Below are positions 3,001 through 6,134 of a stretch of DNA of 32,000 nucleotides, piece by piece. The notes below the pieces were generated by a model. It ran no database searches. It worked only from the letters and a program-made list of their open reading frames with translations, and was not told the DNA's origin. Position 1 is the stretch's first letter, and each line of letters opens with the position of its first letter. The translations under genes and the position numbers were made by a program. Source of the stretch: Gemmata obscuriglobus (lineage in GTDB: Bacteria > Planctomycetota > Planctomycetia > Gemmatales > Gemmataceae); assembly GCF_008065095.1 (NCBI RefSeq), contig NZ_CP042911.1:3090001-3122000 (forward strand), written 5' to 3'.

Positions 3001-5733
3001 CGATACACGTACGACGGATTTGGGCAGGTACTGCAGCAGGATACGATGCCCGGCGCAGATCCGTCTGCGGAGCCGACCTCAAAGGGCACGCCGACGCCGC
3101 ACGACGCCAGCGGGAACGGCCCGTACCCGAGTAAGGCGGCGGCCCAGGGCAAGGGGTACCGGGTGCCGTCCCAGGTCTCCGCGTCGGGCGGGCTGGAAGT
3201 GACGTACGACGGGCTCTCCAGCCCCGAGCTCCCGACCGGCACCGCCGGCAACGTGACCCGCGAACGGTTCTTCATCACCAGCAGTACCGGTGCTTTGGTC
3301 GAAACCGGGCGGTGGGAACTGGAATACGACGGGCGGAATCGGCTGGTGGCGGTCAAAGTAAAGAAGATCGACCCGAAAACCGGCGTTACGTCCGAGTTCC
3401 GGGTCAACTACGTGTACGACACCTTCGACCGGCTGGTGGCCCGGTACGAAACAGCGAACATGAACGATACGGGCATCGGCGCCACCGCAAACCTGTACCT
3501 ATACGCCGACGGGCAACCGTACGCCGACGTGAGCATTAACGGGTCGATCACCGCGCGGCACCTGTTCGGCCCTGCCGGCCAACCTTTGGCCGGCCTGGCT
3601 CCGGGCGCGACCGAGCCCCACTTCTACCTGACCGACCGGCAGAACTCGGTGCTCCAGATCGTGACCATTGACGGCACCACGCTCAAGCGCATCAAGTACG
3701 AGGGGCTCAACGCCGAGCGGGTCGGGAGCGGCGTGATCGGGCTCGACCGGTTCGAGTTGGGCGGCCAGACGTACGACCAGACGAGCGGTTTGGCGCAACT
3801 CGGCGGTTCGTGGTATGACGGCCGCATCGGCCGGCAGTTGACAGAAAGCGGCCGCGGGATCGGACTGAACCCGTACCCAGTTGCGAATAACAACGCGCCC
3901 AACCAACTGGACAAGAGCGAGCAAGCATATCCCGGAGCGCCGGCGGGGTGGGAACTCATATTCATGAGCGGGCGGACGCAGGCGCTCGCGAACAAGGCCC
4001 GCGGCACGCAATTCGAAGATGCGGCCGGTATTCTGCACGGAATCGTCAAGGGGCTCGACGTTCCGCGCAGCATGTTCGAGAGCACGGGGACACGACGGCT
4101 GTATCACATCGAAGAGCGGTGGAAGCAGAAGCCGTCCGCCAGCGAGCAAGAACTGTGGACGGATTTCGGCGCGTGGATGCTTGATGGTGGACCGTTACCT
4201 ATCCAAAACCCGTTCTTCTCCTTCGACAGCGCGGTCCAGGACTACCGTGCGGCCCGCGGCCGGAAGTTGGATCGCCGTGTAGCGGTCTCGCAAGCCGTTC
4301 TAAAGAACATGTGGTTAGCGCGGAACGGCTGGCAGATCGAAGAGGGCATTGACGGGTATGAGACTGGAGGGCCGAACGATCGCGCCAAATTGTCCCCGGG
4401 TGAGCGGGCGGAACGTATCACCTCCGGTGTCTTCGGGCTCGTGATGGATGTTAGCGTGGCTGGCGGCTTTTTCCGAGGGCGTGGGCCGCAAGGTCGCGCT
4501 AAGCCACAAATCACACCCGCCATTGCGGAGCCCTTGGTGCCCGTGGCCCCGAGAGGTGTGGTTGCTCGAAATGCTCCGAGGCTGAATCAAGCGACAGCGG
4601 TGGCCGTCCACAATGTGTTACCGCAAGTGCCGGTTCTCGGGCGGTTGCACAAGCCGGTCGCGTGGACCCTAAACAAACTCGGGTTCGAGGTGTGCTTTGC
4701 GTCTGGCACACCGATGCGGACTCCGGGTGGGTGGTGCAACATCGAGAACCTCCGGGTCGGTGATTTCGTTCTCTCGCGGGACGAGTTTTCTCCCGAAGGA
4801 GACATCGAGCCGAAGGAGATTGAGGAGGTGTTCGTTCGTGAAGGGCTGATCTGCGTGCTCACGGTGTTGGGGCAGACGATCCGGTCCACCGACGAGCACC
4901 CGTTCTTCGTAGAGGGCAAGGGGTGGACCCCGCTGAACCAGATCCACGAAGGGGAGCGTATCTGGACGGAGGCGAGCGGCTGGGCTACCGTGGATGCAGT
5001 TAAATCTACGAACCAGTGGGAGACCGTCTATAACTTCCGCGTTGCGGACCACCACACCTACTTCGTCGGCTGCGACGAGTGGGGGTTCAGCGTCTGGGCG
5101 CACAATATCGGCTGTACGCCGGAGATGGTCACGGAAGCCACAAGGGATGTGCTATCCACTGCATCTTTCCGAGGCAGGGGGCGGTTGAGAGCGGATGTCG
5201 TGGAAGCGATGCGGGCGAATCAGTTCGACCGGGCGGCACAGTTGCTCGATCAACTCCCCAACATTGGGGAACGTCGGGCGAGTCGAATCGTCAACCGCCT
5301 TGTCGAGATGGCGGAAGCAGCGGGAGATCTGCGCCCTCCGCAACTGCCTTTAGTTCCGGGCGTCAGTAAGATCGTTGGACCTGATGGTTGGACCCCACCG
5401 CAGATTTACCGTGGGCGTTTTGGGAACAACCATGATGTTATGCATAACCGCATCTTTTCTCTCGATGAAACTGGCATGGAAGTGCATACAGCGGGTCACT
5501 TTAAAAATCCCGAAGGCAAGAGCCAGTTTGGCTTTAATGTCCGGGCGAGGGAACTGCTTCTTGATGCTTCTGCTTATGCCGAACACGCTGGGCTTTGGGT
5601 AGAGAGCAAGGCTAAGGTCTTCTTTGACCAGCCTATTGGAATCCATGCCCGAACAGGACAGCCAACAAATGTACTAAATATCTACCGCAACAAAAACAAC
5701 CACATACACGGTTCGCCAGGGAGTCCACAATGA
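1..5733 (+). CDS. RHS/YD-repeat polymorphic toxin, 5'-partial. Order: RHS repeats, RHS core, ~255-aa pre-toxin linker, HINT domain, HhH motif, low-GC toxin tip.
   Basis: The frame of the listed ORF (16..5733) has no stop back to nt 1 (gac ctg gtc cgc gcc gtg...), so the gene starts upstream. About 30 YD-repeat units are readable (YEYDALGRR, YRYDAAGRK, YTYDTLDRA, YVYDALGRL, YYYDALGRV, LDYDGLGRL...). A typical RHS core end follows, then the HINT and toxin modules. Stop is TGA at 5731-5733. Confidence 0.92.
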   Translation, partial: DLVRAVQEPLPRTTTYEYDALGRRTQVVEPVDELGVVVWTRTTETTYDAADNVRTVVTPRVVDTSLFNEPALRPETRYEYDLLNRLTRVTEAANVPDAQLGHAPPATTYRYDAAGRKILEIAPATWSTELLRNTSQATSYTYDTLDRAVTVEEGRWDPQAATPFAAIRRTTMKYDGQDNLVGQTRGIMATGVATMVEATTTTAFVFDAAGRQVAVTEAVGRPEQRTTTREYDGAGHVVLERLTPNEYRLEGVPANEQELEKFRQRPTTKYTYDGLGRLKTTIQAYVAPGEFSGVTDPGGLGHQSQLPVTTYQYDAADRVIRTTDPRGVQSTYVYDALGRLRDETQGASQGDATTQGFVALQREYGYDAADRKTAVGVRNLNLANTDATTAWTTYAYDLLDRPTGVTEGATSAVARSTLTRYNDDGTVTVTTGVSATATLTGPTGNALVYNRPVETRYTYDALGRLARVDEGANLSAADVAALGHTRPWTTFAYDAAGHTVATFTNASTTPGADAVIVTRYLIDGLGRVWQTNEGEGGDGNQSEQRVTSVRYDTLDRVVGKVTLGDPSWTRYDYDALGRVTKQTTPALDPLAKVDPPTNPPTDPLYTAYVWNVFDQVVQQSDQNKSEGEVTNRYDRLGRLRTQVKKGTWEELTYQYDLAGNLLRVDDTVFPLWLENKKETGPSRDVRRTTTQYYAYDALGRRVSETDTYWDNKYPTGHTTHYYYDALGRVEAVWARDGKITWYGYDAVGRQVYEAWDQAVSPTKDNPGLEPFGAGALSRGERTVLATWYDAGDRITYALQGKATLQLQRDQAPNLLPNQKQPLFVRVVPDPIIPDTIVPYTVTQLDYDGLGRLRTETALGVTLTHWYDAAGRGTKVGDAGGYQTTAYDRANRVTARTLSGAAGAGASVQFTYAPESTTARGDRLLTVTAEQNGAATPKIREDIGYETTGLGREVSRGWSVSSKTAHNEYLVTTYDLKGRVWTETRAGIASTSEANWNPRSVRYTYDGFGQVLQQDTMPGADPSAEPTSKGTPTPHDASGNGPYPSKAAAQGKGYRVPSQVSASGGLEVTYDGLSSPELPTGTAGNVTRERFFITSSTGALVETGRWELEYDGRNRLVAVKVKKIDPKTGVTSEFRVNYVYDTFDRLVARYETANMNDTGIGATANLYLYADGQPYADVSINGSITARHLFGPAGQPLAGLAPGATEPHFYLTDRQNSVLQIVTIDGTTLKRIKYEGLNAERVGSGVIGLDRFELGGQTYDQTSGLAQLGGSWYDGRIGRQLTESGRGIGLNPYPVANNNAPNQLDKSEQAYPGAPAGWELIFMSGRTQALANKARGTQFEDAAGILHGIVKGLDVPRSMFESTGTRRLYHIEERWKQKPSASEQELWTDFGAWMLDGGPLPIQNPFFSFDSAVQDYRAARGRKLDRRVAVSQAVLKNMWLARNGWQIEEGIDGYETGGPNDRAKLSPGERAERITSGVFGLVMDVSVAGGFFRGRGPQGRAKPQITPAIAEPLVPVAPRGVVARNAPRLNQATAVAVHNVLPQVPVLGRLHKPVAWTLNKLGFEVCFASGTPMRTPGGWCNIENLRVGDFVLSRDEFSPEGDIEPKEIEEVFVREGLICVLTVLGQTIRSTDEHPFFVEGKGWTPLNQIHEGERIWTEASGWATVDAVKSTNQWETVYNFRVADHHTYFVGCDEWGFSVWAHNIGCTPEMVTEATRDVLSTASFRGRGRLRADVVEAMRANQFDRAAQLLDQLPNIGERRASRIVNRLVEMAEAAGDLRPPQLPLVPGVSKIVGPDGWTPPQIYRGRFGNNHDVMHNRIFSLDETGMEVHTAGHFKNPEGKSQFGFNVRARELLLDASAYAEHAGLWVESKAKVFFDQPIGIHARTGQPTNVLNIYRNKNNHIHGSPGSPQ
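3307..3921 (+). other. RHS repeat-associated core region (C-terminal plug) with a degenerate self-cleavage motif
   Basis: Translation GRWELEYDGRNRLVAV...YLTDRQNSVLQIV...GGQTYDQTSGLAQLGGSWYDGRIGRQLTESGRGIGLNPYPVANNNAPNQLDKSE follows the recalled RHS-core consensus (...GxxxDxxtGLyyxxaRyYDPxxGRFxsxDPiG..gg.NlYxYvxNNPvnxvDPxGL). Both DPxG boxes are altered. Confidence 0.75.
4693..5106 (+). other. HINT (Hedgehog/intein-like, pre-toxin HINT type) autoprocessing domain
   Basis: N-terminal Cys block CFASGTPMRTPGGW (Cys codon 4693-4695). Block B is STDEHPFFVEGKGW. C-terminal blocks are VYNFRVADHHTYFVG...SVWAHN (Asn codon 5104-5106). The next residue is Ile (5107-5109), not Cys/Ser/Thr. Confidence 0.85.
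5107..5733 (+). other. C-terminal toxin module. The tip from ~5431 may be a bacterial EndoU-like RNase; otherwise unclassified.
   Basis: Lies downstream of the HINT C-terminal Asn. GC drops sharply from ~5340. MHNRIFSLDETGMEVHTAGHFKNPEGKSQFGF...IGIHARTGQPTNVLNIYRNKNNHIHGSPG loosely matches my recollection of the EndoU_bacteria pattern (HIL.GD..GGGH....G..GK(S/T).FP ... G..I.V......G.I.TAYP). It retains His/His/Lys-Ser candidates. Confidence 0.4.
5242..5301 (+). other. Helix-hairpin-helix-like nucleic-acid-binding motif inside the toxin module
   Basis: LLDQLPNIGERRASRIVNRL fits the HhH pattern L..hPGIG...A..Ih..R seen in ComEA/RuvA-type HhH motifs. This is pattern recognition only. Confidence 0.5.

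Positions 5734-6134: not shown

Follow-up and report, generated by a model that had tools for sequence, protein, structure and literature searches.

A putative Ntox50-like RNase and its candidate immunity protein at the tip of a giant RHS polymorphic toxin of Gemmata obscuriglobus

In this work, we describe the C-terminal tip of a giant RHS protein of the planctomycete Gemmata obscuriglobus, and the small gene lying directly downstream of it, within a window of 32,000 nucleotides (nt) of contig NZ_CP042911.1 (assembly GCF_008065095.1, positions 3,090,001 to 3,122,000), to whose first letter all coordinates refer. Sequence comparison and structure prediction make it probable that the locus, taken as a whole, encodes an RHS polymorphic toxin ending in an RNase domain of the Ntox50/MafB2-CT lineage, followed by the gene for its cognate immunity protein. 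Confidence is highest for the presence of a toxin/immunity cassette, which we regard as very likely; that the toxin is an Ntox50-like RNase of the BECR fold, using histidines 127 and 201 of the tip, is held with good confidence. The original prediction, made from the letters of the window, had proposed a toxin tip formed by a helix-hairpin-helix (HhH) motif and a possibly EndoU-like RNase, coupled to an orphan immunity gene: the start of the tip, the motifs quoted from it, the ATGA overlap and the end of the open reading frame (ORF) of 134 amino acids (aa) at 6134 are all present. The central elements, with residues numbered from the first of the tip, are the following.

5380–5733, + strand: C-terminal toxin domain (about 115 aa; tip residues 92–208 plus the stop codon)
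5476–5496, + strand: C-terminal motif MEVHTAG
5485–5487, + strand: His127, predicted catalytic residue
5512–5529, + strand: C-terminal motif EGKSQF
5698–5718, + strand: C-terminal motif NHIHGSP
5707–5709, + strand: His201, predicted catalytic residue
5718–5733, + strand: putative translational-coupling junction (AGGGAG at 5718–5723, ATGA at 5730–5733)
5730–6134, + strand: candidate cognate immunity gene (134 aa, isoelectric point (pI) 4.7, no detected signal or family annotation)

The toxin domain belongs to a large family. An exhaustive HMMER scan of 1.84 billion representative sequences, with clusters defined at 50% identity, retrieved at least 225 clusters matching the domain at E ≤ 1e-3, and 117 at E ≤ 1e-10. 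Nearly all of the 225 match tip residues 92–208 only, and in 136 of 139 cases the match ends no more than 7 residues from the protein C-terminus. The relatives, mostly basic (median pI 9.2) and up to 62% identical to the Gemmata copy, are carried by RHS, TcdB plus RHS, CdiA/two-partner secretion/filamentous haemagglutinin, WXG100, GH108 plus LysM and Neisseria MafB N-termini. An RHS shell, a PT-HINT domain and a variable C-terminal toxin domain, seen on other carriers, are thus all found, as in RHS-type polymorphic toxins. When the 208-aa tip was used as query in a word-indexed search, no homologue was retrieved; in view of the 225 clusters recovered by HMMER, this result is an artefact of sensitivity, and a verdict of singleton based on the word-indexed search alone would have been wrong for both the toxin and the immunity protein. 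Many database "proteins" of about 83 aa (P0184–P0192 and others) span just some 70% of the toxin domain, at its C-terminal end: these entries, as well as the short toxin remnants found in metagenomes, are likely to be displaced cassette remnants.

The order of toxin and small acidic protein recurs in some 20 independent loci, spread over several phyla, and the proposal of a toxin tip with a translationally coupled, immunity-type gene is well supported by this pairing. The gene lying 3' of the toxin homologue P0156 encodes a protein 30% identical to the Gemmata one over its full length (E 3e-10), ending in DLWYATV where Gemmata has DIWWATV, and four further loci likewise carry an immunity homologue behind the toxin. 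Scanning of GTDB genomes, with the toxin alone, as a narrower alignment, for query, yielded 13 loci, spanning Prochloron, Planctomycetaceae, Phycisphaerae, Sorangium, Haliangium and other Myxococcota: in all 13 the ORF directly 3' of the toxin matches the hidden Markov model (HMM) of the immunity family, with E values from 1e-11 to 1e-27, partial matches at contig ends included. Two more loci, an RHS protein of Streptomyces cadmiisoli and a class 3 MafB of N. gonorrhoeae, each followed by an immunity-family gene, were added by tblastn. An HMM built from the downstream genes of the other loci, and not containing the Gemmata protein, scored the latter at 123 bits. Recurrent motifs of the family are W18, D-W-[DE]-x-G-x-E-x-W and a C-terminal D-L-W-[WY]-A-T-V.

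The reverse search, in which a degenerate DNA pattern for DW[DE]xGDEEW[AG]R was run against metagenomes, selected 11 loci, all of them (11 out of 11) encoding members of the immunity family. Five have a toxin upstream, four retain only its last 15–30 residues or so, and two have no toxin; loci of the remnant type include L034, L040, L041 and L042. Such a mixture of intact, decayed and orphan loci is typical of polymorphic toxin systems. The Gemmata gene itself can no longer be called an orphan, as homologues were found directly 3' of the toxin in all loci examined: a word-indexed search with the 134-aa protein returned the Gemmata copy only, which accounts for the earlier impression, and the family came to light solely by way of gene neighbourhoods.

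At the junction, the immunity start overlaps the toxin stop by 4 nt (ATGA), and the hexamer AGGGAG, six bases ahead of the ATG at 5730, falls inside the conserved Pro-Gly-Ser codons of the toxin. The Shine-Dalgarno (SD) motif attributed to the gene is therefore present as such, while its function as a ribosome-binding site is something we infer from sequence. Most homologous loci feature the same 4-nt overlap, ATGA or GTGA, along with an upstream motif of the GGGAG/GGAGG type. In Gemmata and in the junctions of loci L001–L027 this motif is encoded by the C-terminal Pro-Gly-Ser/Thr codons of the toxin; the PG[ST]P tail may be under a double constraint, as protein and as ribosome-binding site. 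The Prochloron and Gemmata junctions are almost identical at the nucleotide level (accagggagtccacaATGA and gccagggagtccacaATGA, respectively).

Members of the immunity family are uniformly acidic, with pI values from 4.1 to 5.2, in contrast to the basic toxins, and this difference in charge agrees, by analogy with MafI2 and YxxD, with an occlusion of the RNA-binding face. The absence of a recognised immunity family, such as SUKH or Imm, was confirmed: none of 16 members matches Pfam at E ≤ 0.1, Imm*, SUKH and SuFu families included, the 134-aa protein has no match in NCBIfam or PHROGs, and the family profile found among PDB sequences only a chance match (E 0.7), with no similarity to solved immunity proteins, MafI2 included. 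In classical Ntox50 loci of Ralstonia and Ligilactobacillus, the downstream genes are unrelated to the Gemmata immunity family. As judged from these sequence comparisons, the family is uncatalogued in the Pfam, NCBIfam, PHROG and PDB sequence libraries.

Turning to the nature of the toxin, several comparisons lead to Ntox50. A phmmer search of PDB sequences with the tip gave a single match, chain B of 8hhj, corresponding to MafB2-CT (E 0.0028), and the MafB2 fragment in question is itself a clear Ntox50 member (Pfam E 4.7e-24). The AlphaFold2 (AF2) model of the tip, built from a 68-sequence alignment, has a predicted local distance difference test score (pLDDT) mostly above 90 across tip residues 95–208: when this predicted model was compared with the PDB by Foldseek, 8hhj_B, a helix plus beta-meander whose fold has been described as BECR or RNase A-like, was the sole significant match among the 50 listed (E 4.1e-4, probability 1.00, TMt 0.59, 27% identity), the second-best having an E value of 0.58. 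No significant match was found among the viral structures of BFVD. At the profile level, the 137-sequence alignment of the toxin family was aligned by hhalign, over 81 columns, with a three-sequence Ntox50 alignment, composed of MafB2-CT and the C-terminal domains (CTDs) of a Ralstonia haemagglutinin and of a MuF-type protein of L. salivarius (Ligilactobacillus), with 95.7% probability and E 1e-8; the toxin-family HMM matches the Ligilactobacillus Ntox50 CTD at E 6e-8. Because phmmer, AF2/Foldseek, hhalign and the family HMM all tie the domain to Ntox50, we conclude that it forms a divergent sister clade of Ntox50, lying outside the reach of the Pfam model. The original statement that it belongs to no named Ntox/Tox family was thus too strong; as to matches with described families, the toxin can be led back to the Ntox50 lineage, while the immunity protein has none.

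The predicted active site is strongly conserved. Within the 137-sequence alignment, H127 is kept in 136 members, H201 in 135, S139 in 134, P204 in 132 and Y193 in 125; at position 138 there is K or R in 130 members, at position 194 R or K in 132, and at position 187 T or S throughout (137 of 137). In the phmmer alignment to MafB2-CT, H127 corresponds to H335, K138, within the GKS motif, to K346, Y193 to H402, and H201, on the last strand, to H409. Each of the H335A, H402A and H409A mutations abolishes MafB2 toxicity, the domain cleaves RNA in vitro, and H335 has been proposed as its general base (PMC9970974). Zhang et al. (2012) described for Ntox50 one N-terminal histidine plus a C-terminal histidine at the S/T position of the BECR fold, within the motif set H, S, K, T, H, K, HxVP (PMC3482391). 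Exactly this two-histidine pattern is observed in the Gemmata family, which retains H127, K138-S139, T187, R/K194, H201 and P204; the altered positions are the middle histidine, H402 of MafB2, replaced by Tyr in 125 of 137 members, and HxVP, which becomes HG[SA]P. The Gemmata copy itself keeps both histidines, K138/S139, T187, Y193/R194 and P204. Since the residues align to MafB2, follow the Ntox50 pattern and belong to a domain whose relatives are RNases, endoribonucleolytic cleavage by two-histidine acid-base chemistry is the most likely activity, by analogy.

Some results weigh against this assignment. The tip scores only 13.7 bits on Pfam Ntox50 (PF15542; E 0.11), below the gathering cut-off of 22.2 bits, and among 52 relatives just 3 fall below an E value of 0.01 (lowest value 2.1e-4). 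A profile of the 52 sequences failed to retrieve 8hhj by hmmsearch of PDB sequences at E ≤ 1, and hhalign against the lone MafB2 fragment gives a probability of just 36%. The third essential histidine of MafB2 being Tyr in the family, mechanism and substrate may differ; this replacement is the main mechanistic difference from MafB2. The Gemmata copy is, moreover, off consensus at four near-invariant positions (G115R, Y117F, A155S and D159E) and contains two small insertions, so that this copy may have a reduced activity. Finally, AF2 modelling of the immunity protein from its single sequence reached a pLDDT of 47, and the Foldseek matches of this model are noise: of the fold searches suggested for the two proteins, that with the tip led to 8hhj_B, while that with the 134-aa protein was uninformative.

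The toxin family has no Pfam annotation in precomputed tables, and scans of the tip against Pfam, NCBIfam and PHROGs gave nothing for the toxin beyond the weak Ntox50 match. Having failed the Pfam cut-off and one motif position, the domain is filed as Ntox50-like, and not as a member of Pfam Ntox50. Assignment to Ntox49, a family of Zhang et al. typed on a gonococcal protein, was also considered and rejected: Ntox49 has been equated with DUF4258 in a preprint (bioRxiv 10.64898/2026.08.28.747851), and no DUF4258 match was reported for the family.

The ORF bearing the tip, on the + strand, enters the window across its left edge and stops with the TGA at 5731–5733, 1905 aa being visible. The full-length carrier, a protein of 6552 aa, is found in G. 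obscuriglobus CP025958.1, where an identical 134-aa protein is encoded directly 3' of the 6552-aa gene call. Upstream of the toxin domain the following elements can be recognised.

16–3924, + strand: RHS/YD-repeat shell, C-terminal part of the carrier (Pfam RHS_repeat E 2e-40, 12 stretches)
3802–3924, + strand: degenerate RHS core-end motif, GGSWYDGRIGRQL...NNNAPNQLDKSEQ
4693–5106, + strand: pretoxin Hint domain (PT-HINT), presumably autoproteolytic; Cys1560 to His-Asn1697 of the visible ORF
5107–5328, + strand: four-helix post-HINT module with an HhH-like motif (from AF2 and homology)
5245–5301, + strand: HhH-like motif LDQLPNIGERRASRIVNRL
5329–5379, + strand: Pro-rich linker (DLRPPQLPLVPGVSKIVG), with pLDDT below 50 at tip residues 73–79

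The RHS core end at 3802–3924 (+ strand) is still recognisable as WYDGRIGRQL...NPYPVANNNAPNQLDKSEQ; it has no cleavage motif of the DPxGL type, canonical in other Rhs proteins. Some 255 residues with no domain assignment separate it from the HINT domain, which was detected by Pfam as PT-HINT at residues 1568–1697 (E 7.3e-17) and as Hint_2 at residues 1559–1590. The HINT cysteine (CFASGTPM) begins at nt 4693 and the terminal His-Asn (VWAHN) finishes at nt 5106, so that the tip, 208 aa at 5107–5733, starts with the first residue past HINT.

The first part of the tip is a module of its own. AF2 predicts four helices in it, at tip residues 5–18, 25–36, 40–48 and 55–71, with pLDDT of 63–81. Four proteins (P0057, P0059, P0143 and P0146) match tip residues 1–74 only, with 52–58% identity, and have unrelated C-termini. 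In all four the hairpin is canonical (LRGIGPARAEAIV, VPGIGPKRAEAIV), and P0143, whose module is 52% identical and reads VPGIGPKRA, passes the Pfam HHH_5 cut-off with 33.8 bits against 27. The corresponding stretch in the window, LPNIGERRA, where Asn replaces the first Gly, has no more than weak matches to RecR_HhH (E 0.16) and TIGR00615 (E 0.1): the HhH-like element first noticed here is thus present, as judged from its homologue, though poorly recognisable in the Gemmata sequence. The C-terminus of P0146 is an EndoU_bacteria domain (E 9.3e-14) and that of P0059 is DUF4258, while most toxin-family members carry no HhH module. Since the module is matched apart from the toxin, in proteins with other C-termini, the HhH stretch is, on sequence evidence, a separate, shuffled post-HINT adaptor, conserved and lying outside the polymorphic toxin, and the combination of HhH and RNase is not a single toxin fold. 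The identifiable C-terminal partners of the module are all BECR RNases, namely Ntox50-like in Gemmata, EndoU_bacteria in P0146 and DUF4258/Ntox49 in P0059. The module may serve RNase toxins specifically, as an adaptor for entry or for the binding of nucleic acids, a helper role which we infer only.

The polymorphic part begins past the Pro-rich linker, where base composition changes. GC falls from about 0.60 to 0.47–0.50 at about 5350–5425, and remains at or below 0.50 up to about 6175–6250. The RHS body has a GC of 0.69 and a GC at third codon positions (GC3) of 0.91; the post-core region, HINT and HhH module have GC values of about 0.60–0.62 and GC3 of 0.63–0.80, the stretch 5107–5379 being intermediate with a GC3 of 0.63. 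In the toxin domain GC is 0.49 and GC3 0.47; in the immunity gene both are 0.45. The anomalously low GC reported for the tip and the downstream ORF is therefore real, and common to the toxin domain of the former and to the latter. Homology within the toxin family begins at tip residue 92–95 or so, near the GC drop, and the linker is likely to be the recombination junction between resident module and imported cassette. Because composition and homology boundaries agree, the toxin domain and immunity gene appear to have come in jointly, as a single foreign cassette recombined at the linker. The low-GC tract (0.38–0.44) extends for about 100 bp beyond the immunity stop, from 6134 to 6250, with no ORF of note, and probably marks where the imported cassette ends on its 3' side.

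Other explanations of the tip have been weighed. Identity with the bacterial EndoU family of uridylate-specific RNases, which had been suggested from the histidine-rich motifs, would be compatible with a fold and a two-histidine chemistry that EndoU and Ntox50 share (PMC3482391), and a true EndoU_bacteria domain does follow the same post-HINT HhH module in P0146. In the tip, however, EndoU_bacteria (PF14436) finds no match at E ≤ 1, nor does it in the 52 relatives at E ≤ 0.01; no EndoU occurs among the 50 Foldseek matches listed, of which MafB2-CT alone is significant, and a single unit of about 115 aa contrasts with the two BECR units described for EndoU (PMC3482391). The EndoU assignment is thus very improbable. 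A slightly better, but still slim, chance is given to the idea that the HhH module points to a DNA target, the tip being a DNase or some other DNA-directed enzyme. HhH motifs usually bind nucleic-acid backbones in a sequence-nonspecific manner, most often those of DNA, and the P0143 homologue of the module is a confident HHH_5 match; the module, however, is separable and is joined elsewhere to the RNase domains EndoU_bacteria and DUF4258 (Ntox49), the majority of the toxin family does without it, and the closest characterised relatives of the toxin are RNases.

The Gemmata cassette might also be a decaying or attenuated copy, a genomic relic with a weak or inactive toxin. The off-consensus positions and the two insertions would fit such a state, as would a nearby small ORF interrupted by a nonsense codon and the frequent occurrence, in the family, of truncated toxin remnants beside intact immunity genes. 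Yet both frames are intact, both predicted catalytic histidines and the other conserved residues listed above are kept, the overlap and SD-like motif are preserved, and the toxin is in frame with a full-length RHS-HINT carrier, so that we consider decay unlikely, although less so than the other alternatives. Least probable of all appears a role of the 134-aa protein as an accessory factor, be it chaperone, adaptor or co-toxin, in place of immunity. Its lack of detectable similarity to described immunity families would leave room for it; against it, the position directly 3' of the toxin, with the 4-nt overlap, is strictly conserved, the proteins are small, uniformly acidic and face a basic toxin, and the gene persists beside truncated toxins as well as alone. 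In polymorphic toxin systems, it is by such features that immunity genes are recognised (PMC3482391, PMC4287609).

According to the preferred explanation, an Ntox50-lineage RNase with its cognate immunity protein, the system would operate as follows. The PT-HINT domain ending at nt 5106 would cleave itself off, as known Hint domains do, freeing the 208-aa fragment, composed of the resident HhH module, the Pro-rich linker and the imported toxin domain of about 115 aa. Once delivered into the cytoplasm of a competitor, the toxin would cleave RNA by acid-base catalysis: the general base would be His127 and the general acid His201 of the last beta-strand, in a pocket lined by Lys138/Ser139, Thr187 and Tyr193/Arg194. 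The substrate would most likely be tRNA or other bulk cellular RNA; that it is specifically tRNA, by analogy with YxiD only, seems rather doubtful. The 134-aa acidic protein, made in step with the toxin through translational coupling, would bind its basic RNA-binding face and active site with 1:1 stoichiometry, protecting the producer.

The Gemmata system follows the plan common to RHS, CdiA and MafB toxins, in which a carrier and a processing domain precede an exchangeable C-terminal toxin, coupled to an immunity gene. Its closest known counterpart is the MafB2-CT(MGI-2 B16B6)/MafI2 pair of N. meningitidis (8HHJ, PF15542), a C-terminal polymorphic-toxin domain with the same predicted fold, 27–35% identical over some 80–90 residues and sharing with Gemmata the general-base histidine, the GKS motif and the last-strand histidine. 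MafI2, like the Gemmata 134-aa gene, is encoded directly 3' of the toxin, and acts by charge-complementary occlusion (PMC9970974). Differences are the sub-threshold Ntox50 score, the Tyr in place of H402 and H-G-[SA]-P in place of HxVP, the lack of detectable sequence similarity between the Gemmata immunity protein and MafI2 or any PDB chain, and the carrier, RHS plus PT-HINT in Gemmata and MafB in MafB2. YxiD-CT/YxxD of Bacillus subtilis 6633 (PDB 9V8I) is a further case of an Ntox50-type BECR RNase ending a polymorphic toxin, as proposed for Gemmata: YxiD-CT, in which three histidines are conserved, cleaves tRNA in a metal-dependent manner, while YxxD, encoded downstream, adopts an Sm-like fold and neutralises it 1:1 (PMC12700104). 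Neither chain was recovered by sequence searches of the PDB with toxin and immunity protein, or among the matches listed by the toxin fold search. Bacterial EndoU toxins, such as MafB MGI-1 NEM8013, resemble the Gemmata domain in the broad BECR superfold, the two-histidine chemistry and the polymorphic-toxin setting (PMC3482391, PMC4287609); they are described as a duplicated BECR unit, while the Gemmata domain is a single one, with no sequence or fold match between them in the scans given above.

The class 3 MafB/MafI pair of N. gonorrhoeae (NZ_CP119142.1, 1104503–1107745; locus L028) consists of true members of both Gemmata families. Its toxin CTD matches the toxin-family HMM at E 1.1e-28 and the next ORF the immunity-family HMM at E 1e-13, while the N-terminal part is a Pfam MafB domain (E 7.5e-47) with a DWVKN motif; delivery is thus of the MafB type instead of RHS/HINT, and there is no HhH module. 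No report was found of this gonococcal class 3 pair being characterised. The sequence NZ_CP119142.1, listed in PLSDB as a "plasmid", is 2.17 Mb long and has 17 annotated features; it is evidently a chromosome, in which the MafB/MafI pair is unannotated.

Downstream of the cassette, a small ORF of about 91 codons at 6397–6672 (+ strand) reads MPKFELGQIVATPGAL up to an in-frame TAA past codon 16, and then AIRSSGQ...LLPSEY. It looks, from its sequence, like a nonsense-inactivated gene; the repaired ORF has no Pfam match. Two publicly annotated ORFs, of 114 aa at 6686–7030 and of 62 aa at 7478–7666 (both on the + strand), lie in the interval separating the immunity gene from a methyltransferase of 548 aa (7765–9411), and neither matches Pfam. 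A consensus scan of 5000–7200 revealed no convincing terminator or promoter.

Both families are unnamed in the libraries searched; the BECR classification of the preprint cited above (bioRxiv 10.64898/2026.08.28.747851) has 31 subfamilies without names in its text, which might include the toxin clade. That they represent an uncharacterised toxin-immunity family crossing phyla, and at the same time an Ntox50-like clade with a His-to-Tyr change, an inhibitor of new fold and a new HhH adaptor, is put forward tentatively, the chances of this joint claim being short of even. If true, the family would extend over Planctomycetota, Myxococcota, Cyanobacteria, Actinomycetota, Bacillota and the gonococcal MafB/MafI pair; the clade with the altered active site might act on a new RNA target, the fold of the immunity protein would be one unseen among RNase inhibitors, and the post-HINT module would represent a novel adaptor, active either in nucleic-acid binding or in cell entry. 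The finding as a whole leaves the understanding of such systems unchanged and will not surprise a specialist; it is of use for annotation and as a source of candidate reagents, namely an inhibitor and an RNase specificity that are possibly both new. At least 225 clusters (50% identity) of unannotated tips, the gonococcal pair included, gain a proposed function and candidate catalytic residues, along with a matching immunity family missed entirely by current domain libraries. For G. obscuriglobus, these observations suggest that a planctomycete RHS giant renews its warhead by a low-GC cassette, spliced at the Pro-rich linker behind the resident HINT-HhH.

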